From the NCBI GenBank assembly GCA_963822445.1, contig CAWGHO010000002.1, positions 608,001 through 672,000 on the forward strand: 64,000 bases of DNA, read 5' to 3'. Shown here in pieces: positions 7,886 through 49,283 of the stretch. The translations under genes and the position numbers were made by a program. The DNA comes from an uncultured Acidobacteriota bacterium. GTDB taxonomy: Bacteria > Acidobacteriota > Thermoanaerobaculia > Gp7-AA8. A model generated the notes under the pieces. The model did not search any database and was not told the DNA's origin. It worked only from the letters and a program-made list of their open reading frames with translations. Positions within the stretch are counted from its first letter, which is position 1; each line of letters begins with the position of its first letter.

Positions 7886-10800
7886 ATGCCCCCGAGTCGC
7901 TCGTTTTCTCGTTTTCTTGGCCTGTCTATCGCCTGCGCCGTCCTGTTTCTCGCACCGGCCGCGCACGCAGCGCTCACCATCGAGCCTCTCACCTGGAACG
8001 TCGTCGGTCTGGACAGCAACACCCCTACCGACGGGCCAAACCGCTTTCCCGTCGGAGCACGCGTCTGCAGCAGCGTGAACACGACGAACGTCAGCGTGAG
8101 CTTCGTCTGGGACTCGGCGAACGCGTTCATCAACCTGCGCCCGGGATCGCTCAGCACGATCCTCATCCCGTCGATCAGCGCGGGCGACTGCGCCGACGCC
8201 TACTTCGAAGTGGAGGTCGATAAGAACGCGCTGGCCTTCGACACGGCCCGGCGCTACCACATCACCGCGACCGACTTCTCGGGAACGGTCTCCACTCCGA
8301 CCCCGCGCGAGATCTACGTCGAGCATCTGATCTCCCAGAGCCGCAACTCCATCAGCGACGTGAAGTACGGCACCGACCCGATGAACCTGACTTCGGTCGC
8401 CCCCGGCGGCTCGATGTCGCTGGTCGTCGGCAACACGTACACCATCCAGCTCCTCGGCGGGACAGCCACGCAGGGCTACAACCAGTTCGAAGCGTTCATC
8501 AACTTCCCCAACACGATCTTTCAGGTCCTCGCGGTCGAGACGACGTACTCGGCGAACAATTCGCCCTACGTCACCGGACCAGCGCCCCTGATTCACGATC
8601 AGCTCTACGCCGACGCCTGTCTGTGGGAAAACGATCCGAACAGCCCGAACTACCGTTCCTGCGTCGGCGGCGACTTCAAGTCCGGCGGCAGCACGGTCAT
8701 CACCACCTACACGATCAAGATCATCGGCGGCGGCGGAACGAGCGAAGCGCTGAACACGCTGCTCTACGACTTCTCCGGCAGCAGCTTCCATTACAACGCC
8801 GACTTCGCGACGGGCGCGCGCGTCGCGAACATCATCGACCCGGCGTCAGCCACCATCAGCAAGAGCTTCAGCCCGAATCCGACCGCGGTGAACGGCATCT
8901 CCGTCCTCACCTTCACCCTGACCAACCCGAACCCGGGAACGCTGGGCGGCTACAACTTCGTCGACAACCTTCCGGCGAACCTGCAGGTGGCCGCGACTCC
9001 GGGCGTGACGAGCAGCGGCTGCGGAACGCCGACCATCACCGCGAACGCCGGCGCGAGCTCGATCACCTTCGCGAACGGAACGCTGGCCGCCAACGCGACC
9101 TGCCTGGTGAACGTCAACGTCACGCCGACGGCGACGGGCACGTTCAACAACACGACGAACAACCTCTTCATCGGAACGATCGACACCGGCGACAATGCCG
9201 CGGCCTCGCTGACGGTCAACACCGATACGCCCGGCACCGGTTTGTGCGGCGTGACCCTCGCCAGCTGGACCGTGCCGAACGGCACCACCGCCAATCCGCC
9301 TGACCTCACCGGCGGCGTTCCGACGGTCAAGGCCGCGAACGTGGCCACGGCAACAGCGGCTGCCTTCATCCCGGCGGGAACGTCGATCGTTGCCACCAGC
9401 GGCCACATCGACACGACCTCCTGGCGCACCTGGGGCTACAAGAACGACGGGCAGTACATCGACTTCACGGTCAACACGTCGAACTACACGGCCGTGCAGA
9501 TGAGCTTCTGGGTGGCGAACCCCAGCCCGGCCAACGGCCCGACTTCGCTCACGGTCCAGGTGAACAACGGCGGCGGATTCGGCGCGGCGGTGCTCACCGT
9601 TCCCAATCCCGCGATCGGGTTCACCCAGCACACCATCAATCTGACCGGGCTGACCAACACGACCGGCAACACGATCTTCCGCATTGCCGCGACGGGCGCC
9701 AACGCCGACACGAGCGGCGCCGCGCTGAATTTCGACGACATCACCTTCACCGGCTGCACGAGCGCCGTCGACCCGACGTTCTCCAAGTCGTTCTCGCCGG
9801 ATCCGATCGCGGTGAACGGCACGTCGACCCTGACCTTCACGATCACCAATACGAATGCGGTGGCCCTGAACAACGCCAAGTTCATCGACACGCTGCCGGC
9901 CGGCGTGCAGGTCGCGGCCGTTCCCGCGGCGAGCACGACCTGCACCGGTTCACCCTCCTGGGCACCGACGGCAGGCTCGACGACCCTCAACTTCGGCCAG
10001 ACCACCGGCGCGATCATCCCGGCCAGCGGCTCCTGCACGGTGTCTGTGAACGTGACTGCGACGACCGGCGGTCCCCACTCCAACGTGAGCGGCTTCCTGT
10101 CGACGACCGAGACCGGAACCGTGAACGGCTCCATCGCCAGCGACACGCTGACGGCGGTCCTGCCGCCGGCGATCGACAAGCTGTTCTCGCCGTCGCCGAT
10201 CCTTCCGGGCGGCACGTCGACGCTGACGTTCACGCTCACCAATCCGAATCAGAACGACGCCCTCTCCGGCGTCGCCTTCACCGACACCTTCCCGGTCGCA
10301 CCGGGCGCGATGACCGTCGCCTCCGTTCCGGGCGCGACGACCAGCGGCTGCGGCGCACCGACCTTCTCGCCTGCCGCGGGCGCGGGCTCGGTCAGCTTCT
10401 CCGGCGGCACCCTCGCCCCGGGCGGAACCTGCACGGTGACCGTCAACGTGACTGCCCCCGTCGTGGGCACGTACGCGAACACGAGCGGCAACGTCTCGCA
10501 CGTGATCAACGCCCAGACCGTCAACGGCAACACCGCCAGCGACTCGCTCGACGTCGATCCGCCGAGCCCCTCGATCGCTCTGCTCAAACAGGTGAGCACG
10601 AGCCCTAGCGGACCGTGGACCTCGTTCATCGCGGTTCCCACCGGCGCGTCGGTTCATTTCCGCTTCACCGTGGAGAACACGGGCGATGTGCCGCTGACCA
10701 ACATCAGCATCAGTGACGACACGCTCAACGTCGCAACCTGCAACGCGGCGTTCACGGGGCTGACCCTGCCCGTGGCCGTCCCCGCGAACGACAACCACAT

Positions 10801-13800
10801 CGTGACCTGCGTGGCCGGTCCGGTGGTGGCCACCGCGGGATCGCACACGAACACGGCCACGGCGTCGGGCACCTTCAACGCCATCGCCTACCCGTCCGAT
10901 CCGTCGTCGGCGATCTACGCGACGACCGGTCTGACCCTCGACAAGACTTCGGTCCAGACCTCCTTCACCGTCGCCGGCGACCCGCTGAACTACAACTACC
11001 TGGTCACAAACAGCGGCTTCGCGCCGCTGGTGGGGCCGGTCACCGTCTCCGACGACAAGGCCACCGTCACCTGCCCGGCGGTCACGACCGTGGGCGATCT
11101 GGACAACTTCCTCGACCCGGGCGAGTCCGTCACCTGCACGGCGACCTATTTCGTCACCGCGGGCGATGTCGCCGCCGGATTCGTGACCAACACCGCCACG
11201 GCCAGTGCCGACGGTGTCTCGTCGCCGCCCGACAGCGTGACGGTCATCTCCACCCTCGCCGCCGACGTCTCGGTGGTGAAGACGCTCGTTACCACCGGCC
11301 CGTACTACGCCGGCCAGTCGGTCACGTACACGCTGTTCGTCGAGAACAACGGTCCGTCGACCGCTACCAACGTCCAGGTCAACGACGGGCCGTCGAACCT
11401 GAGCATCACCAGCGTTTCCGGCGGCGGCTGCGTGGCCCTGCCCTGCACCATTCCCAGCATCGCCTCCGGCGGCGACGCGACCATCACCGTCACCGCGACC
11501 ATCACCGCGGCCGGTGTGTTCGACAACACCACCACGGTCGACGCCGACCAGCCCGATCCGGTCCCGGCGAACAACACCGACAGCGTCGACAACGACGGCA
11601 CCGCGGCCGCGTCGGCGGACGTGGAGATGGAGAAGATCCTCGACACCGCCGGCCCGTACTACGCCGGCCAGTCGATCACCTACTCCCTGTTCATCATCAA
11701 TTTCGGACCGTCGACCGCCACGAACGTCGACGTCACGGACACGCCGTCGAACCTGACCATCACCGGCGTCTCCGGCGGCGGCTGCGTCGCGCTGCCGTGC
11801 ACCATCCCCAGCATCCTCGCCACCGCGGACACGACCATCACCGTGACCGCGACCATCATCGCGGCAGGGGCGTTCGACAACACCGCCGACGCGTTCGCCG
11901 ACGAGTTCGATCCGGTGCTCGCCAACAACACCGACAGCGCCGGCAACGGCAACAACGCGGCGCCGGCCGCCGACGTTTCGATGGACAAGGACCTGGTCAC
12001 CGCCGGTCCGTACACCGTCGGCCAGACCGTCACCTACACCCTGACCGTCGCCAACGCCGGCCCGTCGACCGCGACGAACGTCCAGGTCACCGACACGCCG
12101 TCCAACCTCTCCATCACCGGCGTCTCCGGCAGCGGCTGCGCCGCGCTGCCGTGCACGATCCCCAGCATCCCCGCGAACACGGACACGGTCGTCACCGTCA
12201 CCGCCACCATCACCGCCGACGGCGCCTTCGACAACGAGGCCACCGCGATCGCCGCCGAGCTCGATCCGAACCTCACCGACAACACCGACGACGACGGCAA
12301 CAACGGCAGCACCGCCGTCTCGGCGGACGTGTCGATCCTGAAGACGCTGGTCACGGCCGGCCCGTACACGCCGGGCCAGAGCATCACCTACACGCTGTTC
12401 GTGGAGAACGGCGGACTGTCGACCGCGACGAACGTCCAGGTCACCGACACGCCGTCGAACCTCTCCATCACCGGCGTCTCCGGCGCCGGCTGCGCGGCCC
12501 TGCCGTGCACCATCCCCAGCATCGTCTCCGGCGGCGACGAGACCATCACCGTCACGGCGACCATCACCGCCGCCGGTGCGTTCGACAACGTGGCCACGGT
12601 CGACGCCGACGAGCCGGATCCCGATCCGGACGACAACGAGGACGACGAAGACAACGGCGGCAACGCCGTCGCGGCCAACGTCGGGATCGAGAAGATCATC
12701 ACCACGGCCGGCCCGTACTACATCGGCCAGTCCATCACCTTCACCCTGGACGTGAACAACGCCGGCCCGTCGACCGCGACCAGCGTTCAGGTCGCCGACA
12801 CGCCGTCGAACATGACCATCACCGGCGTCTCCGGCAGCGGCTGCGCGGCCCTGCCGTGCACCATCCCGTCGATCCTCGCCGGCACCGAGACCACCATCAC
12901 CGTCACCGCGACCCTGACCGCGGTCGGGCCGTTCGGCAATACCGCCACGGCCAACGGGGCCGAGCCCGATCCCGACTCGAGCGACAACACCGATACGGCA
13001 GGCGACGAATCGCTCCCATCCGCCGATGTCTCCATGGATAAGGACCTGGTCACCCAGGGTCCGTACACGATCGGCCAGAGCATCACCTACACGTTGACCG
13101 TCGCCAACGCCGGGCCGTCGACCGCGACGAACGTTCAGGTCACCGATACGCCCACGAACCTGACCATCACGAACGTCTCCGGCAGCGGCTGCGCGGCTTT
13201 GCCCTGCACCATCCCGAGCATCCCCGCGAACACGGACACGGTCATCACCGTCACCGCCACGATCGACGCCGCGGCACCGTTCGACAACACCGCCTCCGCG
13301 AACGGTGCCGAGCACGACCCCGACCCGGATGACAACACCGATGATGACGGCAACAACGGCATCGTCGGCGCGTCCGCGAACGTCTCGATCGAGAAGATCA
13401 TCACCACCGCCGGTCCGTACTACATCGGCCAGTCGGTCACGTTCACGCTCGAAGTCGGGAACCTCGGTCCGTCGGTCGCTACCAGCGTCCAGGTCGCCGA
13501 TATGCCGTCGAACATGACCATCACCGGCGTCTCCGGCAGCGGCTGCGCGGCACTGCCGTGCACCATCCCGTCGATCCCGGTCGGTACCGACACCACCATC
13601 ACCGTCACCGCGACCTTGACCGCAGTCGGCTCCTTCGGCAACACGGCCACCGCCAACGGCGCCGAGCCCGATCCCGATCCGGACGACAACACCGACACCG
13701 CCGGTGGCGAGTCACTCCCATCGGCCGATGTCTCCATGGACAAGGACCTGGTCACCCCGGGTCCGTACACGATCGGCCAGAGCATCACCTACACCCTGAC

Positions 13801-16294
13801 CGTCGCCAACGCCGGCCCGTCCACCGCGACCGCGGTTCAGGTCACCGACACGCCGACGAATCTGACCATCACCAACGTCTCCGGCAGCGGCTGCGCGGCT
13901 CTCCCGTGCACCATCCCCAGCATCCTGTCGACTGCGGACACGGTCATCACCGTCACCGCCACGATCGACGCCGCGGCACCGTTCGACAACACCGCCTCCG
14001 CGAACGGTGCCGAGCACGACCCCGACCCGGATGACAACACCGATGACGACGGCAACAACGGCATCGTCGGCGCGTCGGCCAACGTCGGGATCGAGAAGAT
14101 CATCACCACGGCCGGCCCGTACTACATCGGCCAGTCCATCACCTTCACCCTGGACGTGAACAACGCCGGCCCGTCGACCGCGACCAGCGTTCAGGTCGCC
14201 GACACGCCGTCGAACATGACCATCACCGGCGTCTCCGGCAGCGGCTGCGCCGCGCTGCCGTGCACCATCCCGTCGATCCTCGTCGGCACCGAGACCACCA
14301 TCACCGTCACCGCGACCTTGACCGCTGTCGGCTCCTTCGGCAACACGGCCACCGCCAACGGCGCCGATCCCGATCCCGATCCGGACGACAACACCGACAC
14401 CGCCGGTGGCGAGTCATTACCATCCGCCGACGTCTCCATGGATAAGGACCTCGTCACCGCGGGTCCGTTCAGCATCGGCCAGAGCATCACCTACACCCTG
14501 ACCGTCGCCAACGCCGGTCCGTCCACCGCGACGGCCGTCGAGGTCACCGACACGCCGACGAATCTGACCATCACAAACGTCTCCGGCAGCGGCTGCGCGG
14601 CTTTGCCCTGCACCATCCCGAGCATCCCCGCGAACACGGACACCGTCATCACCGTCACCGCCACGATCGACGCCGCGGCGCCGTTCGACAACACCGCCTC
14701 CGCGAACGGTGCCGAGCACGACCCCGACCCGGATGACAACACCGATGACGACGGCAACAACGGCATCGTCGGCGCGTCCGCGAACGTCTCGATCGAGAAG
14801 ATCATCACCACCGCCGGTCCGTACTACATCGGCCAGTCGGTCACGTTCACGCTCGAAGTCGGGAACCTCGGCCCGTCGGTCGCCACCAGCGTCCAGGTCG
14901 CCGACACGCCGTCGAACATGACCATCACCGGCGTCTCCGGCAGCGGCTGCGCGGCACTGCCGTGCACCATCCCGTCGATCCCGGTCGGTACCGACACCAC
15001 GATCACCGTCACGGCGACCCTGACCGCTGTCGGCTCCTTCGGCAACACGGCCACCGCCAACGGCGCCGAGCCCGATCCCGATCCGGACGACAACACCGAC
15101 ACCGCCGGTGGCGAGTCACTCCCATCGGCCGACGTCTCCATGGATAAGGACCTCGTCACCCCAGGTCCGTACACGATCGGCCAGAGCATCACCTACACTC
15201 TGACCGTCGCCAATGCCGGCCCTTCCACCGCCACCGCGGTTCAGGTCACCGACACGCCGACCAACCTCACCATCATCAGCGTCTCCGGCAGCGGCTGCGC
15301 GGCTCTGCCTTGCACGATTCCGAGCATCAACGTCAGTGCGGACACGACCATCACCATCACCGCAACGATCAACGCCGCGGGAGCGTTCGACAACTCGGCC
15401 ACGGCCACCGGTGCCGAGCACGACCCGAACCTCACCGACGACACCGATGACGACGGCAACAACGGCATCGTCGGCGATTCCGCGGACGTCTCCATCGTGA
15501 AGACGCTGACCACCGGAGGCCCGTTCAGCGTCGGCCAGTCGGTCAGCTACACGCTGCTCGTCGCCAACGCCGGTCCGTCGACCGCGACCTCCGTCCAGGT
15601 CACCGACACGCCCACGAATCTGGCCATCACCAGCGTGAGCGGCAGCGGCTGCGCGGCCCTGCCGTGCACGATCCCCAGCATCAACAGCGAAGCAAACACG
15701 CTGATCAATGTCACGGCGACGATCCTCGCCGCCGGTGCGTTCGACAACAGCGCCACCGCGACGTCACCGTTGCCCGATCCCGATCCGGTCGACAACACCG
15801 ATGACGACGACAACGGCGGCAGCACGACGGCGGCGGTCGATATCGCGGTCGTCAAGACCAGCTCGGCGCCGAACATCTTCATCGGCCAGTCGTTCTCTTT
15901 CACCATCGTCGTGACGAACAACGGTCCCGACACGGCGACCAACGTGACCCTGTCCGATCCGCTGCCGGCGAACTTTGCCCTCGACGCGACGGCAACGACC
16001 CAAGGCAGCTGCGCCGGCACGACCACGGTGAATTGTTCGCTCGGCACGATGCTCAACGGCTCGTCGGTCACGATCACCCTCACCGGCCACCCCACTGCCC
16101 CCGGCGCGATGCCGAACACGGCGACGGTGGTGAGCAATGAGTCCGAAGCGGTGACGGCGAACAACTCGTCGAGCTCGACGCCGATGGCTTCTCATGGACC
16201 GGAGCACATTCCGACGGCATCCGAGTGGGGCTTGATCCTCCTTGCCCTCTTCCTCGGCGCAGCCGGCGTGCTCGCGGTACGCACGACCACCTGA
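7886..16294 (+). CDS. Giant (~2800 aa) DUF11-repeat cell-surface protein with IPTL-CTERM sorting signal
   Basis: Signal peptide; many K…GQSITYTL.V.N.GPS.AT.V.V.D DUF11 repeats; C-terminal IPTASEWGLILLALFLGAAGVLAVR; GGAGGAG RBS before the ATG at 7886. Confidence 0.9.
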   Translation: MPPSRSFSRFLGLSIACAVLFLAPAAHAALTIEPLTWNVVGLDSNTPTDGPNRFPVGARVCSSVNTTNVSVSFVWDSANAFINLRPGSLSTILIPSISAGDCADAYFEVEVDKNALAFDTARRYHITATDFSGTVSTPTPREIYVEHLISQSRNSISDVKYGTDPMNLTSVAPGGSMSLVVGNTYTIQLLGGTATQGYNQFEAFINFPNTIFQVLAVETTYSANNSPYVTGPAPLIHDQLYADACLWENDPNSPNYRSCVGGDFKSGGSTVITTYTIKIIGGGGTSEALNTLLYDFSGSSFHYNADFATGARVANIIDPASATISKSFSPNPTAVNGISVLTFTLTNPNPGTLGGYNFVDNLPANLQVAATPGVTSSGCGTPTITANAGASSITFANGTLAANATCLVNVNVTPTATGTFNNTTNNLFIGTIDTGDNAAASLTVNTDTPGTGLCGVTLASWTVPNGTTANPPDLTGGVPTVKAANVATATAAAFIPAGTSIVATSGHIDTTSWRTWGYKNDGQYIDFTVNTSNYTAVQMSFWVANPSPANGPTSLTVQVNNGGGFGAAVLTVPNPAIGFTQHTINLTGLTNTTGNTIFRIAATGANADTSGAALNFDDITFTGCTSAVDPTFSKSFSPDPIAVNGTSTLTFTITNTNAVALNNAKFIDTLPAGVQVAAVPAASTTCTGSPSWAPTAGSTTLNFGQTTGAIIPASGSCTVSVNVTATTGGPHSNVSGFLSTTETGTVNGSIASDTLTAVLPPAIDKLFSPSPILPGGTSTLTFTLTNPNQNDALSGVAFTDTFPVAPGAMTVASVPGATTSGCGAPTFSPAAGAGSVSFSGGTLAPGGTCTVTVNVTAPVVGTYANTSGNVSHVINAQTVNGNTASDSLDVDPPSPSIALLKQVSTSPSGPWTSFIAVPTGASVHFRFTVENTGDVPLTNISISDDTLNVATCNAAFTGLTLPVAVPANDNHIVTCVAGPVVATAGSHTNTATASGTFNAIAYPSDPSSAIYATTGLTLDKTSVQTSFTVAGDPLNYNYLVTNSGFAPLVGPVTVSDDKATVTCPAVTTVGDLDNFLDPGESVTCTATYFVTAGDVAAGFVTNTATASADGVSSPPDSVTVISTLAADVSVVKTLVTTGPYYAGQSVTYTLFVENNGPSTATNVQVNDGPSNLSITSVSGGGCVALPCTIPSIASGGDATITVTATITAAGVFDNTTTVDADQPDPVPANNTDSVDNDGTAAASADVEMEKILDTAGPYYAGQSITYSLFIINFGPSTATNVDVTDTPSNLTITGVSGGGCVALPCTIPSILATADTTITVTATIIAAGAFDNTADAFADEFDPVLANNTDSAGNGNNAAPAADVSMDKDLVTAGPYTVGQTVTYTLTVANAGPSTATNVQVTDTPSNLSITGVSGSGCAALPCTIPSIPANTDTVVTVTATITADGAFDNEATAIAAELDPNLTDNTDDDGNNGSTAVSADVSILKTLVTAGPYTPGQSITYTLFVENGGLSTATNVQVTDTPSNLSITGVSGAGCAALPCTIPSIVSGGDETITVTATITAAGAFDNVATVDADEPDPDPDDNEDDEDNGGNAVAANVGIEKIITTAGPYYIGQSITFTLDVNNAGPSTATSVQVADTPSNMTITGVSGSGCAALPCTIPSILAGTETTITVTATLTAVGPFGNTATANGAEPDPDSSDNTDTAGDESLPSADVSMDKDLVTQGPYTIGQSITYTLTVANAGPSTATNVQVTDTPTNLTITNVSGSGCAALPCTIPSIPANTDTVITVTATIDAAAPFDNTASANGAEHDPDPDDNTDDDGNNGIVGASANVSIEKIITTAGPYYIGQSVTFTLEVGNLGPSVATSVQVADMPSNMTITGVSGSGCAALPCTIPSIPVGTDTTITVTATLTAVGSFGNTATANGAEPDPDPDDNTDTAGGESLPSADVSMDKDLVTPGPYTIGQSITYTLTVANAGPSTATAVQVTDTPTNLTITNVSGSGCAALPCTIPSILSTADTVITVTATIDAAAPFDNTASANGAEHDPDPDDNTDDDGNNGIVGASANVGIEKIITTAGPYYIGQSITFTLDVNNAGPSTATSVQVADTPSNMTITGVSGSGCAALPCTIPSILVGTETTITVTATLTAVGSFGNTATANGADPDPDPDDNTDTAGGESLPSADVSMDKDLVTAGPFSIGQSITYTLTVANAGPSTATAVEVTDTPTNLTITNVSGSGCAALPCTIPSIPANTDTVITVTATIDAAAPFDNTASANGAEHDPDPDDNTDDDGNNGIVGASANVSIEKIITTAGPYYIGQSVTFTLEVGNLGPSVATSVQVADTPSNMTITGVSGSGCAALPCTIPSIPVGTDTTITVTATLTAVGSFGNTATANGAEPDPDPDDNTDTAGGESLPSADVSMDKDLVTPGPYTIGQSITYTLTVANAGPSTATAVQVTDTPTNLTIISVSGSGCAALPCTIPSINVSADTTITITATINAAGAFDNSATATGAEHDPNLTDDTDDDGNNGIVGDSADVSIVKTLTTGGPFSVGQSVSYTLLVANAGPSTATSVQVTDTPTNLAITSVSGSGCAALPCTIPSINSEANTLINVTATILAAGAFDNSATATSPLPDPDPVDNTDDDDNGGSTTAAVDIAVVKTSSAPNIFIGQSFSFTIVVTNNGPDTATNVTLSDPLPANFALDATATTQGSCAGTTTVNCSLGTMLNGSSVTITLTGHPTAPGAMPNTATVVSNESEAVTANNSSSSTPMASHGPEHIPTASEWGLILLALFLGAAGVLAVRTTT
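12677..15484 (+). repeat. Intragenic tandem array of four 702-bp units (two DUF11 domains each) with a 1404-bp higher-order period
   Basis: Units start at 12677, 13379, 14081 and 14783; units 1 and 3 begin NVGIEK…LDVNNAG, units 2 and 4 begin NVSIEK…LEVGNLG. Confidence 0.85.
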
Positions 16295-16295
16295 C

Positions 16296-16358
16296 GTGTG
16301 GTGTGGGCCTCTGGCCTACCTTTCTTTCGAGAGGTAGGCCTGGAGGCCCACACTACAC
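16296..16358. repeat. REPIN-like inverted repeat, GTGTGGTG family (copy 1, intergenic); may also act as a bidirectional terminator
   Basis: gtgtggtgtgggcctctggcctacct…aggtaggcctggaggcccacactacac between convergent stop codons; a homologous copy lies at 54825..54894. Confidence 0.8.
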
Positions 16359-43788: not shown

Positions 43789-45513
43789 TTACTTGAGCGG
43801 AAAGTACTGCTGCACCGTGAAGGTGTAGCTCTGCACGGTGTTGATCCAGCCGCGGGCCAGCGCGCGCCACGCGCCGGTCTGCGGGTAATCGATGGCCACG
43901 CCTTCCCGCGCGGCCATGGAGAGTGCCTGAATGTCCTGCGAATTCGCGACGTCGACCCAGGTGCCGTTCTCATCGCGCTGCAGGTACAGATCGAGATCGT
44001 GTGCGTACTGGTCCCAGAAAAGCTTCGCGTCGAGGAACACCGCATTCGGAGCAACCTCGAACGCATGCGCAACCTCGGAAACCGGGTTGTATGCGCCGAC
44101 CGCCGGCAGCAGCGTGCCGGTTCCACGGGTCTCGACGACGTAGACCTGCATGGTCTTGCCCGTGCGCGGATCGCGGTACGCCTTGACGCTCTTGATTCCT
44201 CTGGCCTGCTCCACCGCGGCGTAGGCGTTGATCATCCCCGCGCCGACCGCCCACGGCTCGTACCCGGGCATCGGCGTCGCGGTGTTGACGATGATCCGCT
44301 TCGCGAGATCGGGGGTCATGTCCGCGCGGGTCTGGTAAAGCAGGGCAACGACGCCGGCCACGTGCGGACAGGCCATCGATGTTCCGCTCATGTGCGTGTA
44401 GTAGGGAATCCATTCCGGCTGGATGTTGGCGTCGAGGTCCGCGCCCAGCGGCGGAAGGACGGTGTTCGGTGCGCGTGCGGCGACGATGTCCGTGCCAGGC
44501 GCGGTGATGTGCGGCCGGACGAGATCATCCTGATAGCGGCCGCGCGACGAGCTGTTGCTCAGCGTCGTTCCATCTTTGTATCCGTTGGCGACGCCGATGA
44601 CCCACGGCGCGATCGAGTACGGATTCATCGTGTCCGTGCCCGGGCCGGAATTGCCGGCGGCGAAGACGACGGTCATGCCCGCGTCGGCCGCTACCTTCGA
44701 AGCCTGGTTGATGGGATCGTTCGGATCGAACGCTTCTCCGGGCTCCATCGTGCTGCCCCAGGAGTTGGAGATGACTTTGATGTTGTATTTCGACCGGTTG
44801 CTGATCGCATAGTCGAAGCCCTCCAGCGCGTAGAAGATGAAGAGCGTGTCGCCGGTGCCGATGCCGACGAGATGCGAGCCCGGTGCGACGCCGGCGTAGT
44901 AGCCGCCGGACGCCGCACCGGAGCCGGCGGCGGTGCTCGCGCAGTGCGTGCCGTGACCGCTGGAGGTATCGGAGTTCGGCAGGTTCTCGATGACCTGCAC
45001 GATCGCCGAGCCGGTCGGAGAATCTTCCGCACTCGCGCCGAGGATCTTCACGTTCTGCACGACCTTCGTGCCGAACTTCAGATCGGGATGGGTCGCGTCG
45101 ATGCCGCTGTCGATGACGGCGATGCCGATGCCTTTGCCGTCGATGCCGAGCTGGGACTTCGCGCGATCGGCGCCGATCAGAGCAACCGATTCGTGCAGGA
45201 AGTACTGGAGCTGCTCATCGAGGTAGAGCGATTTGAGGCCGGGGATGCCGAGGAGCCGGGTGACGCCGGCGGCGTTGGTCTCGACCAGCGCCATCGGGAG
45301 CGATTTCAGGAACTGGCTGCGGGAAGTCACCGAGCTGACCAGGGAGCGGTCGAGGGCGGTGGGAACGTGATCGAAGGTGGCGATGACCCGGAGCGGGGCG
45401 GTCGAGGGGGCCGCCAGCCGGGCTTTGAGGTCCGGATCGAGAATCTGGGCCTGCAGAGGAAGAGAAAAAATTGCTGCTACGACGACGAAAAGTGAGCCTG
45501 CCAAGCGTTTCAT
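43789..45513 (-). CDS. Secreted S8 subtilase (AprX-like serine protease)
   Basis: Catalytic triad IDSG (D), GHGTH (H), SGTSMACP (S); AAGNSG oxyanion motif; signal peptide and propeptide. Confidence 0.92.
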   Translation of the reverse strand: MKRLAGSLFVVVAAIFSLPLQAQILDPDLKARLAAPSTAPLRVIATFDHVPTALDRSLVSSVTSRSQFLKSLPMALVETNAAGVTRLLGIPGLKSLYLDEQLQYFLHESVALIGADRAKSQLGIDGKGIGIAVIDSGIDATHPDLKFGTKVVQNVKILGASAEDSPTGSAIVQVIENLPNSDTSSGHGTHCASTAAGSGAASGGYYAGVAPGSHLVGIGTGDTLFIFYALEGFDYAISNRSKYNIKVISNSWGSTMEPGEAFDPNDPINQASKVAADAGMTVVFAAGNSGPGTDTMNPYSIAPWVIGVANGYKDGTTLSNSSSRGRYQDDLVRPHITAPGTDIVAARAPNTVLPPLGADLDANIQPEWIPYYTHMSGTSMACPHVAGVVALLYQTRADMTPDLAKRIIVNTATPMPGYEPWAVGAGMINAYAAVEQARGIKSVKAYRDPRTGKTMQVYVVETRGTGTLLPAVGAYNPVSEVAHAFEVAPNAVFLDAKLFWDQYAHDLDLYLQRDENGTWVDVANSQDIQALSMAAREGVAIDYPQTGAWRALARGWINTVQSYTFTVQQYFPLK

Positions 45514-45554
45514 GTGATGCTTTTTGCGCCTCCTGCCGTGGTAGCAGTACTACC

Positions 45555-45570
45555 AGCAAATCTTCTGCCA
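45555..45570 (-). promoter_or_regulatory. Putative sigma54 promoter
   Basis: Minus strand TGGCAGAAGATTTGCT closely matches TGGCAC-N5-TTGCW, about 40 nt upstream of the subtilase ATG. Confidence 0.6.
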
Positions 45571-45629
45571 GCCTGTTGGTAGGGGCACCACCTTGACGGC
45601 TTTCGACCATCGACGTAGGCTGCCTGAAC

Positions 45630-46250
45630 GTGACCGTCCCGGAAGCCGATCTCACCCAAACCTCCAGAGGACGCCTGCTCACCGCGGGCAAAACGCTGTT
45701 CGCGAAGAGCGGCTACGAGCAGACCTCGACCGCCGCGATCGCGCGCGAAGCCGGCAGCTCGGAATCGCAGTTGATCCGCTACTTCGGCGGCAAAGCGGGG
45801 CTGCTCGAGGCGATCTTCAACGAGTCATGGAAGTCGCTGAATGAGGTCGTCGAGGACCACATCGCCAGCGCCGCTCACGGCCGCGACGCCATCCTCAAGC
45901 TGCTGGTGATGATGATCCAGGCCTTCAGCCTCGATCACGACATCGCCTTCCTCTTCCTCTTCGAAGGACGGCGCATGCGCAGCGGCTCCCACGAAGTGAT
46001 CATCTCCAGCGGCTTCACCAGGTTCATGGAAGTGGTGAACGCGATGATCGAGAAGGGCCGCGCAGACGGCTCGTTCCGCACGGACATCCAACCGGCCGTG
46101 CTCTCTTCAGCAATGCTCGGCTGCGCCGAAGGAATGATCCGCGACCGCGTCCTCGCCGAACGGAACAACAAGCCGAATCCGTTCGAAGACGACGATATCT
46201 ATCGGACGTTCACGGCGATGGTGAACGGGCTCGCTCCGCTCGCCCAGTAA
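45630..46250 (+). CDS. TetR/AcrR family transcriptional regulator
   Basis: LFAKSGYEQTSTAAIAREAG…RYFGGKAGL HTH. Confidence 0.9.
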   Translation: MTVPEADLTQTSRGRLLTAGKTLFAKSGYEQTSTAAIAREAGSSESQLIRYFGGKAGLLEAIFNESWKSLNEVVEDHIASAAHGRDAILKLLVMMIQAFSLDHDIAFLFLFEGRRMRSGSHEVIISSGFTRFMEVVNAMIEKGRADGSFRTDIQPAVLSSAMLGCAEGMIRDRVLAERNNKPNPFEDDDIYRTFTAMVNGLAPLAQ

Positions 46251-46688
46251 TGAGTAATGAGTGATGAGTGAGTCTCATTACAGCGGTTCGTGTCCGGTGC
46301 AGCGGCCGAGCTAGACGACATTGCGCTCGGCGCGTTCCTCTTGGCGCCACCATTCGAGGATTTTCGTGGCGACGGCGATATCTGACGCGTCGTCTTCGAC
46401 GAGCCCCATGGCGCCCGTCCGGCAGTAGCGCAGATGCGCCGCGAGGTCTTCCACGGTTTCGCCTCGCTGAAGGAGGCCAACGATGTGAGGCGCGTAGTTG
46501 TCGTACTCGTCCGGAGGTAGGCCGTCGGCGACAAGATCGTCGGTAACGCCGATCGGATCCCACTCCCGCAGGAACTTCTCGACCTCGCGAATCTGTCTCA
46601 TCGTGCGTCGTTTTCTCTCGTCCATGTCGTCTAACTCAGACCTCATTGATGAGGCATGAGTGAAGCAACTCATCACTCATCCCTCATA
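46246..46688 (-). mobile_element. Putative solitary integron-type gene cassette flanked by (ATGAGTR)n heptamer-repeat hairpins
   Basis: On the minus strand, GTTAGACGACAT(G) at the start and ATGTCGTCTAGC at the stop are 11/12 complementary (GTTRRRY / RYYYAAC-like). The stop is followed by the attC-like sequence tcggccGCTGCACCGGAC. Heptamer arrays lie at 46246..46281 and 46642..46688. Confidence 0.55.
46311..46625 (-). CDS. Small hypothetical protein (DUF1871-like WDPIG…DEYD.Y family)
   Basis: 104 aa from ATG 46625; EWDPIGV…PPDEYDNYA motif; no RBS. Confidence 0.7.
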   Translation of the reverse strand: MDERKRRTMRQIREVEKFLREWDPIGVTDDLVADGLPPDEYDNYAPHIVGLLQRGETVEDLAAHLRYCRTGAMGLVEDDASDIAVATKILEWWRQEERAERNVV

Positions 46689-46693
46689 CCTTT

Positions 46694-49162
46694 TCACTCG
46701 AACGAGTGCGCAAAGTTCCCGATCACGGCCGGCTTGATTCCCCAGATGTCCCGCGCGTACTCGGCGACGGTCCGGTCGGATGAGAACTTGCCCATGCGGG
46801 CGATGTTGAGCACCGACTTTTTCAGCCAGGCGTTGCGGTCGGTGTAGGCGAGATCGACGTTCCGCTGGGCTTCGACGTACGCGGGGAGGTCGGCGAGGTG
46901 CACGTACTCGTCGCGCGTCGACAGGAGCTTCGCGACGATGGGGCGGAAGATGTCCTTGTCCCCTCGCGAGAAATGTCCGGAGGAGATCGAGTCGACGGCG
47001 CGGCGCATCCAGCGATGCTCGTGCAGGTAACGCTGCGGGTCGTACCCGTCGGTCATCAGCGTCTCGACCTGATCCGCCTCCATTCCGAAGATGAAGATGT
47101 TCTCCTCCCCCACCTCGTCGCGGATCTCGATATTCGCGCCATCGAGCGTGCCGATCGTGAGGGCGCCGTTCAGAGCCAGCTTCATGTTGCCGGTGCCCGA
47201 CGCTTCTTTCCCCGCCGTGGAAATCTGCTCGGAGAGCTCGGCCGCCGGCATGATCGCCTCGGCCAGCGTCACGCGGTAATCAGGCAGATACACGACGCGC
47301 AGCCAGTCCCGCGACCGCGGATCGGCATTCACCACCTCGGCGATCGAGTGAATGAGCTTGATGATCAGCTTCGCCATCCAGTAGCCCGGCGCGGCCTTGC
47401 CGGCGAAGATGACCGTGCGCGATTGAATGGGCTTGGTCCGATCTTCGATCAGCTCCCAGTAGCGTTGAATGACATGCAGCGCGTTCAGAAGCTGCCGCTT
47501 GTATTCGTGAATGCGCTTCACCTGCACGTCGAACATCGATCGCGGATCGACGGTCACGCCGGTCAGTTCCTTCGTGAGCTTCGCCAGGGCGACCTTGTTC
47601 CGCCGCTTGACCGTATCGAGACGCTCGAGCAGCGCGGGATCATCCGCGAACAGCTCCAGCTCGCGCAGGCGATCGAGGTCCGTGACCCATTCGTCGCCGA
47701 TGGTTTTCGTGATCAACGACGCGAGCGGACGGTTCGCATGCAGCAGCCAGCGCCGCGGCGTCACGCCGTTCGTCTTGTTGTTGAAGCGCTCCGGATACAG
47801 ACGGAAAAAACCGGGCGCGAGCGATGTCGTGACGAGCTTCGAGTGCAATTCGGCGACACCATTGACCGAGTGACTGCCGGTCATGGCCAGGTTGGCCATG
47901 CGCACGTCGCCCTCGGCCAGAATCGAAACGTCATGCTGCATGGCGATGTCGCCGGGAAAGCGCCGCTCCACTTCCGCGAGCAGGCGGCGGTTGATCTCCT
48001 GAATGATCTGCACGTGCCGCGGCAGCACGCGTTGCATCAGTTCGAACGGCCACTTCTCCAGCGCCTCGGGCAGAAGCGTGTGATTCGTGTAGCCGCAGGT
48101 GCCGACGGTGAGTGCCCACGCTTCCTCCCACGGCATCCGCTCTTCGTCCACGAACACGCGCATGAGCTCCGCGATGGTCAGCGCGGGATGGGTGTCGTTC
48201 AGTTGAATGGCGGTCTTCGCGGCGAGCTCGCGGAAGGACTCGTGCGTCTGGCGGTAACGCTTGAGGATGTCGCGGACGGCGCAGGCAACGAGGAAGTACT
48301 CCTGCAGCAGCCGCAGCTCGCGTCCGGCGGCGACGGTGTCCGAGGGATACAGGACTTTGGAGATCGACTCGCCGGTGATCTTGTCCTGTACCGCGCGGAT
48401 GTAATCGCCGGAGTTGAAGATGCCGATGTCGAACTGATCGGACGCGCGCGCGGAGAAGAGCCGCAACACGTTCACGGTGCGGCCGCCGTATCCGACGATG
48501 GGCATGTCGTGCGGCACGCCGACGATCACTTTGAAATCGACCCACTTCGGCGAATACACACCGCCCTCGGTCGCATGCGCGATGGAGCCATAAACCGGAA
48601 TCTCGACCGCCTCGTCGATCCGCTCGATCAGCCAGGGCGATCCGCCGTCGAGCCAGTGATCGGGCTTCTCGTGCTGATAGCCGTTGATGAAGTTCTGGCG
48701 GAAGAGACCGAACTCGTAGTTGATGCCGTAGCCGAAGCCGGGCATGTCCAGCGTCGCCAGTGAATCGAGGAAGCAGGCCGCGAGGCGGCCCAGGCCACCG
48801 TTGCCGAGGGCCGCGTCGGGCTCGAAGGATTCCAGCTCTTCGAAGTCGGCGCCGAGCTCGGAGACGACGCTCCGGGCCTCGTCGTACAGGCCGAGGTTGG
48901 AGAGGTTGTTCCCGAGGGCGCGGCCCATGAGGAACTCCATGGAGAGGTAGTAAAGGCGCTTGGCGTCCTGCTCGCGATATCGGCGCTCGCTCTCCCGCAT
49001 GGCGTCGAGCGCGGGCCGGCGCACGGCCGCGGCCAGAGCGTGCAGTTGTTCGCGGTGCGAGGCCTCGCTCCAGACCCGGCCTTTCGCGAACCGGAGGAAC
49101 GACTCGATGCCCTCGCGCAGATGCACGTGCCCGCGGGAGGTGTTGCTGTCGGTACTGCGCAT
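46694..49162 (-). CDS. glgP: Glycogen/starch/alpha-glucan phosphorylase
   Basis: YYLSMEFLMGR, ALGNGGLGRLAAC, QLNDTHP, KRIHEYKRQ and EASGTGNMK (PLP lysine) motifs. Confidence 0.96.
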   Translation of the reverse strand: MRSTDSNTSRGHVHLREGIESFLRFAKGRVWSEASHREQLHALAAAVRRPALDAMRESERRYREQDAKRLYYLSMEFLMGRALGNNLSNLGLYDEARSVVSELGADFEELESFEPDAALGNGGLGRLAACFLDSLATLDMPGFGYGINYEFGLFRQNFINGYQHEKPDHWLDGGSPWLIERIDEAVEIPVYGSIAHATEGGVYSPKWVDFKVIVGVPHDMPIVGYGGRTVNVLRLFSARASDQFDIGIFNSGDYIRAVQDKITGESISKVLYPSDTVAAGRELRLLQEYFLVACAVRDILKRYRQTHESFRELAAKTAIQLNDTHPALTIAELMRVFVDEERMPWEEAWALTVGTCGYTNHTLLPEALEKWPFELMQRVLPRHVQIIQEINRRLLAEVERRFPGDIAMQHDVSILAEGDVRMANLAMTGSHSVNGVAELHSKLVTTSLAPGFFRLYPERFNNKTNGVTPRRWLLHANRPLASLITKTIGDEWVTDLDRLRELELFADDPALLERLDTVKRRNKVALAKLTKELTGVTVDPRSMFDVQVKRIHEYKRQLLNALHVIQRYWELIEDRTKPIQSRTVIFAGKAAPGYWMAKLIIKLIHSIAEVVNADPRSRDWLRVVYLPDYRVTLAEAIMPAAELSEQISTAGKEASGTGNMKLALNGALTIGTLDGANIEIRDEVGEENIFIFGMEADQVETLMTDGYDPQRYLHEHRWMRRAVDSISSGHFSRGDKDIFRPIVAKLLSTRDEYVHLADLPAYVEAQRNVDLAYTDRNAWLKKSVLNIARMGKFSSDRTVAEYARDIWGIKPAVIGNFAHSFE

Positions 49163-49170
49163 GGTTCGTT

Positions 49171-49283
49171 AGTTTATGCCGCGCGAAGACGCGGCATCTC
49201 CCGGTTATACCGCGACAGCCCGAACTTGGGCGGAGACCGTCGCCGCGCACGGAGTGATCCCGCGTCTTCGCGCGGGATAAACT
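49171..49283. repeat. REPIN-like element with 28-bp inverted arms (AGTTTAT family)
   Basis: The left arm agtttatgccgcgcgaagacgcggcatc and the reverse complement of the right arm agtttatcccgcgcgaagacgcgggatc differ at only two positions, which form a compensatory pair. Confidence 0.8.

Follow-up and report, generated by a model that had tools for sequence, protein, structure and literature searches.

A lone integron-like gene cassette with half an attC site, inside a heptamer-repeat hairpin of a Thermoanaerobaculia genome

How does an integron-like gene cassette come to lie on its own between two chromosomal genes, inside the arm of a repeat hairpin and with only part of its recombination site? 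We asked this for a small open reading frame (ORF) between a tetR-family regulator gene and glgP in an uncultured Acidobacteriota bacterium (Thermoanaerobaculia; GenBank assembly GCA_963822445.1, contig CAWGHO010000002.1). The window, that is, the whole stretch of 64,000 nt that was analysed, corresponds to G000:C2:608001-672000, where G000 is the source genome; positions without a contig label follow the numbering of the window, and other G numbers stand for congeners. An initial annotation had described the ORF as an integron cassette that entered a non-attI site formed by a repeat hairpin and then lost half of its attC. We find that a lone cassette with a truncated attC, recently inserted at a non-attI site, is real. 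It was probably placed there by an integron integrase, and the hairpin was most likely an incidental, not a specific, target.

Read along the minus strand, from glgP towards tetR, the locus consists of an intact heptamer hairpin (46649-46687), an orphan repeat arm (46635-46648), G|TTAGAC-GAC-ATG, the ORF of 104 amino acids (aa; 46311-46625, taken from the ORF list), GTCTAGC with the TAG stop codon in it, TCGGCC-GCTGCACCGGACACGAACCGC-TG, the complementary heptamer arm and the tetR stop codon. The inserted cassette remnant is the 354-nt segment at 46281-46634 of this strand (TTAGAC, the ORF and R''-spacer-L''-TG), whose boundaries were set by the in-phase restoration of the heptamers upon its removal. 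Its core site, R' (GTTAGAC, 46629-46635), lies 3 nt before the ATG, and the ORF ends in AATGTCGTC-TAG-C, which contains the inverse core, R'' (GTCTAGC, 46310-46316). The 5' junction of the insert coincides with the canonical crossover point, G|TTAGAC, and no remnant of L' or of a spacer is seen upstream of it.

The two ends of the ORF (46308-46321 and 46624-46637) pair over 14 nt with 13 of 14 positions complementary (93%); within them, GTCTAGC and GTTAGAC form six Watson-Crick pairs out of seven and one G.T pair. The inverse core deviates from the RYYYAAC consensus at one base (AGC, not AAC). Since a bona fide cassette in a Planctomycetota metagenome-assembled genome (MAG), the locus L040, has the identical pair GTTAGAC/GTCTAGC, we take this "mismatch" to be a TAG-for-TAA variant and not a sign of decay. 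The statements of the initial annotation about the letters themselves, namely a GTTRRRY core, the GTCTAGC inverse core, ends that are complementary save for one base, and heptamers on the flanks, all hold on re-reading.

Is the ORF a cassette gene elsewhere, too? A protein search of 24 genomes of the same genus gave one clear ortholog, in G015 (E 1.4e-40, 66% identity), and only weak partial matches in G002 and G006. The ortholog is found on an 18.4-kb contig (L014) of a MAG labelled Thermoanaerobaculia bacterium, where it sits between two attC sites of an array of 12 sites with R''-L''-loop-L'-R' anatomy. In 10 of the 11 successive cassettes of this array, the 5' TTRRRY is exactly complementary to the cassette's own R'', and the eleventh is off by one base. 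The layout of the ortholog is that of the window gene (GTTAGCC-GAC-GTG at the start, GTC-GGC-TAA-C at the end), and the pairing of core and inverse core is kept in it (GTTAGCCGAC / GTCGGCTAAC) as well as in four more distant homologs. Among 51 homolog loci in the genome_contigs set, which span many phyla, five pass a strict test for complementary cores at the ends of the ORF, exactly in four and with one mismatch in L040. They come from Thermoanaerobaculia, Planctomycetota, Phycisphaera, Chthoniobacterales and Gemmatimonadaceae, and each is followed downstream by a full attC; in four of the five, R'' contains the stop codon, at the same offset (-6). The other 46 loci fail this narrow test, and therefore the wider family is not exclusively cassette-borne. 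Judged by these boundaries and by the array-borne ortholog, the ORF is an integron gene cassette gene, as had been proposed for it.

In line with an insertion, the GC content of the ORF at third codon positions is 0.75, against 0.85 and 0.87 for tetR and glgP. Protein searches returned homologs at only 31-39% identity on metagenome contigs, and two distant matches on plasmids (34-39% identity), both hypothetical proteins. A genome scan for ORFs bounded by exactly complementary cores gave 8 cases against 1 in the control; it recovers 5 of the ~60 array cassettes and is too insensitive to count cryptic cassettes. Upstream of its cassette array, the G015 contig also carries a 10-nt unit (CCTCGGAGTT) in long tandem arrays, at positions 1-280 and 10489-10830, the former at the contig end.

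If the ORF is a cassette gene, its stop codon should be followed by an attC site. The segment behind R'' (46283-46309, minus strand) is made up of the spacer TCGGCC and the 21-nt L''-like arm GCTGCACCGGACACGAACCGC. The 30 nt after R'' match the L'' arms of the attC sites at G015 C149:14504 and G000 C3:17378 in 20 of 23 columns, including an identical 13-mer and an identical 7-mer. With the L'' halves of 17 attC sites as the reference, as high a score is reached by only 9 of 20000 segments of 30 nt drawn at random from the genome (p ~5e-4). This alignment supports the view that the segment is the R''-L'' half of an attC, and the earlier suggestion of a left half after the stop codon is upheld. 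Beyond the L'' arm, L', loop and R' are absent, and the right junction follows 2 nt further on. A hypothetical circle formed from the present insert would pair through its R boxes alone (-13 kcal/mol), with no L box. A genome-wide fuzzy motif scan with 2 mismatches is dominated by chance matches, and one metagenome contig (run X3, record 11) matches 46281-46317 only.

The repeats on both sides show where the segment went in. The left part of hairpin 1 (ATGAGTA ATGAGTG ATGAGTG, AGT, CTCATTA; 46250-46280), recognised by its sequence and by heptamer pattern matches, folds weakly on its own (-5.3 kcal/mol). Its right part (CTCAGAC CTCATTG; 46635-46648) is recognised by the fold that it forms with 46246-46280, which has an 11-bp inner and a 6-bp outer stem (z = -5.5 against shuffles). 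Upon removal of 46281-46634 the sequence reads CAATGAG GTCTGAG TAATGAG in phase, followed by the loop and three complementary units; no target bases have been lost or gained. Without the insert, the sequence folds as two tandem hairpins (-22 kcal/mol), and the earlier reading of the flanking heptamers as parts of a hairpin is supported. The second of the two, hairpin 2 (46649-46687), is intact and begins 7 nt past the glgP stop codon; its arms (46649-46663 and 46673-46687) are 93% complementary, 9 nt apart, and fold with -12.4 kcal/mol. The outermost arms of the locus, 46250-46269 and 46668-46687, are 90% complementary across 398 nt. With up to one mismatch, ATGAGTRATGAGT has four matches in the window, all of them at this locus (0.05 expected from shuffles).

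The genes on either side are a tetR-family regulator (45630-46250, plus strand; Pfam TetR_N, 4.7e-13), whose TAA stop codon (46248-46250) lies inside the first heptamer unit, and glgP, encoding a glycogen/maltodextrin phosphorylase (46694-49162, minus strand; Pfam Phosphorylase, 1043 bits). They are convergent with 443 nt in between, and glgP is co-directional with the cassette ORF and upstream of it.

In relatives the site is empty. A DNA search of 34 congeners (counts here include the unpublished genomes G002 and G041) found glgP in all 34 and cassette DNA in one, G015, where it belongs to the array. The pair tetR-glgP is conserved in its convergent order, with tetR orthologs at 67-81% protein identity. 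We read 16 junctions, 12 with both genes and 4 with the glgP-downstream side only, and the ORF is in none of them. A closer relative is represented by a soil metagenome contig of 909 nt (run X1, record 1) with flanks about 90-94% identical to the window: it matches 45900-46245 with 21 differences in 346 nt and 46669-46794 with 13 in 126 nt, and it joins 46245 to 46669 by 53 letters, compared with 423 nt in the window. Insertion at a non-attI site, as proposed in the initial annotation, is borne out by these junctions. Two other candidates did not stand. Joints in sequencing runs that connect 46271 to 46667/8 were rejected as evidence for the empty site, their sides being 20-22 nt long and derived from other compact heptamer hairpins. 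The idea that a heptamer hairpin was inserted into an attC loop was rejected as well, because the repeats are followed by the tetR stop codon and not by the remainder of an attC. In the sequencing-run search, the best run carries 0.09 of the sampled words, and the RNA run X9 covers the flanks only.

Across the genus, the spacer between tetR and glgP is highly variable, the extremes being 21 nt and about 8.6 kb; in G001, G005 and G007 it is 21-31 nt between aligned gene ends. Hairpins of other tandem units are found at the junction in G043 (L017), G045 (L023), G047 (L020), G050 (L029), G013 (L033) and G012 (L028), the unit differing between species (TTGTCTG, CTCTGTG, GAGTCTC, GGACGGATA, ATAGGACN and one complex unit). 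Unrelated genes occupy the junction in G045, G049, G046 and G048. By eye, the one that adjoins glgP in G045 and G049, without an attC, encodes a putative hexapeptide-repeat acetyltransferase, and those of G046 are a putative toxin-antitoxin pair.

Which enzyme could have moved the cassette? The initial annotation had noted that there is no integrase nearby. This is correct for the window, which has none (the nearest partial tyrosine-recombinase match is about 89 kb from the locus), and incorrect for the genome, where an intact intI lies 1.46 Mb away on the same contig (C2:2118113-2119048, a 321-aa open frame; TIGR02249, 456 bits with a cut-off of 265). About 2.6 kb downstream of intI, and on the same strand, begins an array of 105 kb (C2:2121610-2226593) with 65 R''-side motifs, 59 of which have a matching R' side. 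The attC sites of the array are unusually long, about 195 nt, and the same type occurs at about eight dispersed loci. Two further attC sites, at C3:17378-17481 and C2:1939655-1939752, were found with R1, a covariance model made from the 12 attC sites of G015. Given intI, the large array and the dispersed attC loci, dispersal of cassettes is common in the source genome.

The positions of the dispersed loci are C1:99-101 kb, C1:1228-1232 kb, C2:55 kb, C2:480-494 kb, C3:159-160 kb, C3:1330-1336 kb and C3:1357 kb. Another lone cassette is found at G000:C3:16400-18400 (L095), with GTTAGAC, then an ORF of 252 aa, then the full attC at C3:17378-17481 (R1, 32 bits), in which R' is degenerate (GCTGAGC). 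Its ORF has a weak match to HNH_2 (20.8 bits, with a cut-off of 21), the L'' arm of its attC is the closest to that of the window, and by eye a second attC-like site follows about 500 nt further on.

We give a probability of about 0.6 to the reading that the 354-nt segment is a cassette placed by an integron integrase at a non-att genomic site in the heptamer hairpin. IntI would have inserted it at G|TA inside the heptamer array of the tetR-glgP hairpin, as in the events known for single attC sites lacking an integron integrase (SALINs) and for genomic attG sites. This was probably the work of the genome's own IntI in trans, or of an integrase that was present at the time of transfer. The distal half of the attC (loop, L' and spacer) would have been deleted internally after the insertion, which would have fixed the cassette in place. 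The cassette gene would be transcribed by read-through from glgP, as on that strand hairpin 2 lacks a U-tract. An integrase-mediated genomic insertion is consistent with the left junction, which lies exactly at G|TT, and with the undisturbed target.

Several observations weigh against this reading. A canonical insertion should leave a whole attC, and here only R''-spacer-L'' is present; R1, which is a narrow model of a single genome and cannot score a half site, detects no complete attC at the locus, whether its filters are set to default or switched off. The position of the right junction, 2 nt past the L'' arm, requires a precise internal deletion in which the last base or bases stayed in place, or else a non-canonical joining at the tip of the attC hairpin; either would do. 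The target, CTGAG|TAATGAG, agrees with the attG consensus GWT at two of three positions (G|TA), its +1 and +2 bases being inferred from a possibly remodelled junction. The resident array uses a different attC type, the one of about 195 nt. The similarity of the half attC is not significant genome-wide by BLAST, as exact 13-16-mers to GC-rich attC sites are common at E >= 0.1, and therefore the argument for the half site is a positional one. Finally, a single locus cannot show which integrase acted or when.

How does the locus compare with known systems? SALINs were reported in 2469 of 21105 genomes, and attG sites were described as having a GWT consensus at -1 to +2 and as being recombined as double-stranded DNA, in a preprint (Loot et al., bioRxiv 10.1101/2022.09.11.507474; published version Nat Microbiol 2024;9:228, as cited in PMC12614218). 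The window locus resembles these cases in that a single promoterless cassette lies off the platform, with a 5' junction at G|TT, no integrase nearby, an IntI elsewhere in the genome and expression possible from a host promoter only. A SALIN is defined by one detectable attC, and the window locus, which shares the other features, has R''-L'' only; it therefore behaves as a SALIN does, without qualifying for the name. The published attG sites are double-stranded and without repeat-hairpin structure, whereas the window target, inferred to be G|TA and so unlike GWT in its third base, is inside a tandem-repeat hairpin. The aadB cassette at secondary sites of RSF1010 and pRAY, as treated in the discussion of the preprint, is likewise a lone cassette outside att sites that lies downstream of a host transcription unit; aadB cassettes are described there as complete, whereas the window cassette lacks half of its attC and is chromosomal, in an environmental member of the Acidobacteriota (Thermoanaerobaculia). 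With attC clusters that have no integron integrase (CALINs) and with sedentary chromosomal arrays, the window shares the gene family and the core-site grammar of the G015 array, and the source genome has both its 105-kb array and dispersed attC clusters. It differs from them in that it has a single cassette, lacks a second attC and carries an attC of another type than the resident sites. The locus is thus of a known kind (SALIN/attG), a natural example of a known route of spread and not a new system.

The insert might also have been captured without any integrase. Illegitimate recombination or break repair could have pasted a fragment of an array, with an R' core at one end and the tip of the following attC hairpin at the other, into a break in the fragile palindromic hairpin. 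The insert stops at its 3' side where the L'' arm ends and the attC loop would begin, the point at which nicking or cutting would strike a folded attC, and the lack of a complete attC at the locus is what such a capture would leave. Long repeat palindromes are, moreover, plausible break sites, since palindromes are unstable. On the other hand, the 5' end falls exactly on G|TTAGAC, without L' or spacer, for which a random break has odds of roughly 1 in 100 per attC, and the clean, in-phase target is atypical of break repair. We consider such a capture rather unlikely.

Did the hairpin itself play a part? The initial annotation had suggested that the hairpin formed the insertion site and that repeat hairpins in general are linked to the dispersal of cassettes. 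We analysed the ATGAGKN hairpin family, which is defined by arrays of at least 2-3 units that face each other as inverted repeats across a short loop and are scattered over intergenic DNA; the window locus, with one hairpin split and one intact, falls under this definition. In the source genome, 9 paired loci and 2 single arrays belong to the family, which is present in 16 of 35 genomes of the genus. For the 10 other heptamer loci, the distance to the nearest attC is 8.9-255 kb, and a heptamer array is found next to none of the roughly 10 dispersed attC loci. Neither the idea that the hairpin formed the site nor a general link between hairpins and dispersal is supported. The hairpin is most likely an incidental target. 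One of these loci (G000 C3:934810-934997) has two tandem heptamer hairpins, apparently duplicated with about 50 nt of flank and with no ORF between them; it is the sole other ATGAGKN locus of the genome with outer arms more than 100 nt apart.

In this lineage, tandem-repeat hairpins do enclose genes, which keeps alive a minority reading that gives the hairpin an active role as a target. Hairpins of short tandem repeats would then be gene-holding intergenic elements that are readily extruded as single-stranded hairpins and serve as landing pads for folded-DNA recombination, and the cassette would have been frozen there with half of its attC. We regard this as doubtful. If true, cassettes with half an attC would be invisible to attC-based finders, and the domestication of cassettes would be under-counted.

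A related and still more improbable possibility is that the hairpin resembles an intervening sequence (IVS) and holds a gene, the cassette gene being cargo gained by a mechanism of the element's own. All six genes of the source genome with PF05635 (23S_rRNA_IVP, the 23S rRNA intervening-sequence protein) are directly flanked by inverted short-tandem-repeat arms, each locus with its own unit, and an ATGAGGK-armed hairpin surrounds a PF05635 gene in G043 (E 4.3e-37). The window, too, has a gene for a small helical protein between inverted short-tandem-repeat arms, with the outer pair of 90% complementarity around it. The window ORF differs in having no sequence or fold match to PF05635, and its boundaries are those of an integron cassette, conserved in array-borne orthologs. 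Furthermore, the insert splits one arm instead of sitting in a loop; in the relative of run X1, glgP is still bordered by the distal arm of hairpin 2, and only 53 letters and no cargo lie between the genes; and most ATGAGKN hairpins are compact in the source genome, G046 and G016.

The PF05635 genes, all of them outside the window, are an observation in their own right. They lie at C1:681621-681938, C3:1709643-1709957, C3:432320-432634, C3:1244131-1244442, C3:654395-654688 and C2:1084705-1084995. The arms abut the gene in five of them, and at C3:432320 the upstream arm is about 85 nt before the ATG. Their locus-specific units are GTTAGTC, GACGAGG, GGGTTRCG-like, AATGCAG, GGCAGAA and AATTGAA. 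The G043 locus (L094, G043:C11:15400-16900) has its arms at 15900-15934 and 16317-16351 around a gene of 128 aa, whose ATG lies in the last repeat unit; by eye, it is placed between putative genes for an ABC-transporter ATPase and a permease. The locus at G000 C3:1709643 is apparently the same insertion at the matching junction, but with ACGAGGG arms. Literature searches on repeat hairpins, whether in Acidobacteria or next to PF05635 genes, brought up no relevant paper.

Could the cassette instead be the last remnant of an older array or CALIN that decayed in place between tetR and glgP? The many dispersed attC loci of the genome, the degraded attC at the locus and the highly variable spacer of this gene pair would suit such a history. 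Against it, the spacer holds no further attC remnants, the removal of exactly one cassette restores the heptamer phase, and the site is empty in the X1 relative and in the congeners read, so that we judge it very improbable. That the ORF is an ordinary resident gene, with complementary ends and an attC-like tail by chance, is refuted as far as the tools used allow: exact matches of 13-16 nt to GC-rich attC are indeed common genome-wide, but none of the relatives read has the gene at this site, its ortholog is part of an attC array, the core pairing is conserved, and the positional test gives p of about 5e-4.

What does the cassette encode? The ORF has no match in Pfam (E <= 0.1), NCBIfam or PADLOC. 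A search of 5.8 billion clustered proteins gave only 9 close relatives, and a profile search gave 2258 clusters at E <= 0.001; the family alignment (A1) has 18 invariant columns, and some members of the family are fused to other DUF domains. The AlphaFold2 (AF2) model is all-helical, with a mean predicted local distance difference test score (pLDDT) of 86. Its best Foldseek matches in the Protein Data Bank (PDB) are 3r2x_C, which we take to be a design on the 1u84 scaffold, and 1u84 (probabilities 0.98 and 0.89; template modelling (TM) scores 0.60/0.74; E about 1). An Atlas cluster in which 12% of the members carry DUF1871 (PF08958) scores 0.87. DUF1871 has a conserved WDP...EYD motif. With DUF1871 and PDB 1u84 (APC36109), the product shares a predicted helical bundle of about 100 aa. 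It differs in having no Pfam match at the above threshold, so that the Pfam model does not place it in the family, and a PDB sequence search with profile A1 gave only noise at E about 1. A helical, DUF1871-like protein is thus a lead at the level of the predicted fold and of the Atlas cluster.

The signals around the ORF agree with a promoterless cassette. No sigma-70-like promoter was found in 46000-47000, and no Shine-Dalgarno motif within 15 nt of the ATG, as had been stated for this small gene between tetR and glgP. The lack of a ribosome-binding site is not diagnostic here, because glgP and tetR have no Shine-Dalgarno-like motif upstream of their starts either (49162-49190 and 45600-45629). 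Rfam has no match in 45500-47500.

While this locus does not show that repeat hairpins drive the dispersal of cassettes, it is a natural example, in an uncultured soil member of the Acidobacteriota (Thermoanaerobaculia), of a cassette that has left its platform and become fixed at an ordinary chromosomal site, with the empty site kept in relatives and with boundaries that are readable to the base. It lends support from an environmental genome to the attG/SALIN route, which is known from experiments in E. coli. It also suggests that such insertions can lose their attC, and hence escape detection by methods that rely on attC sites.

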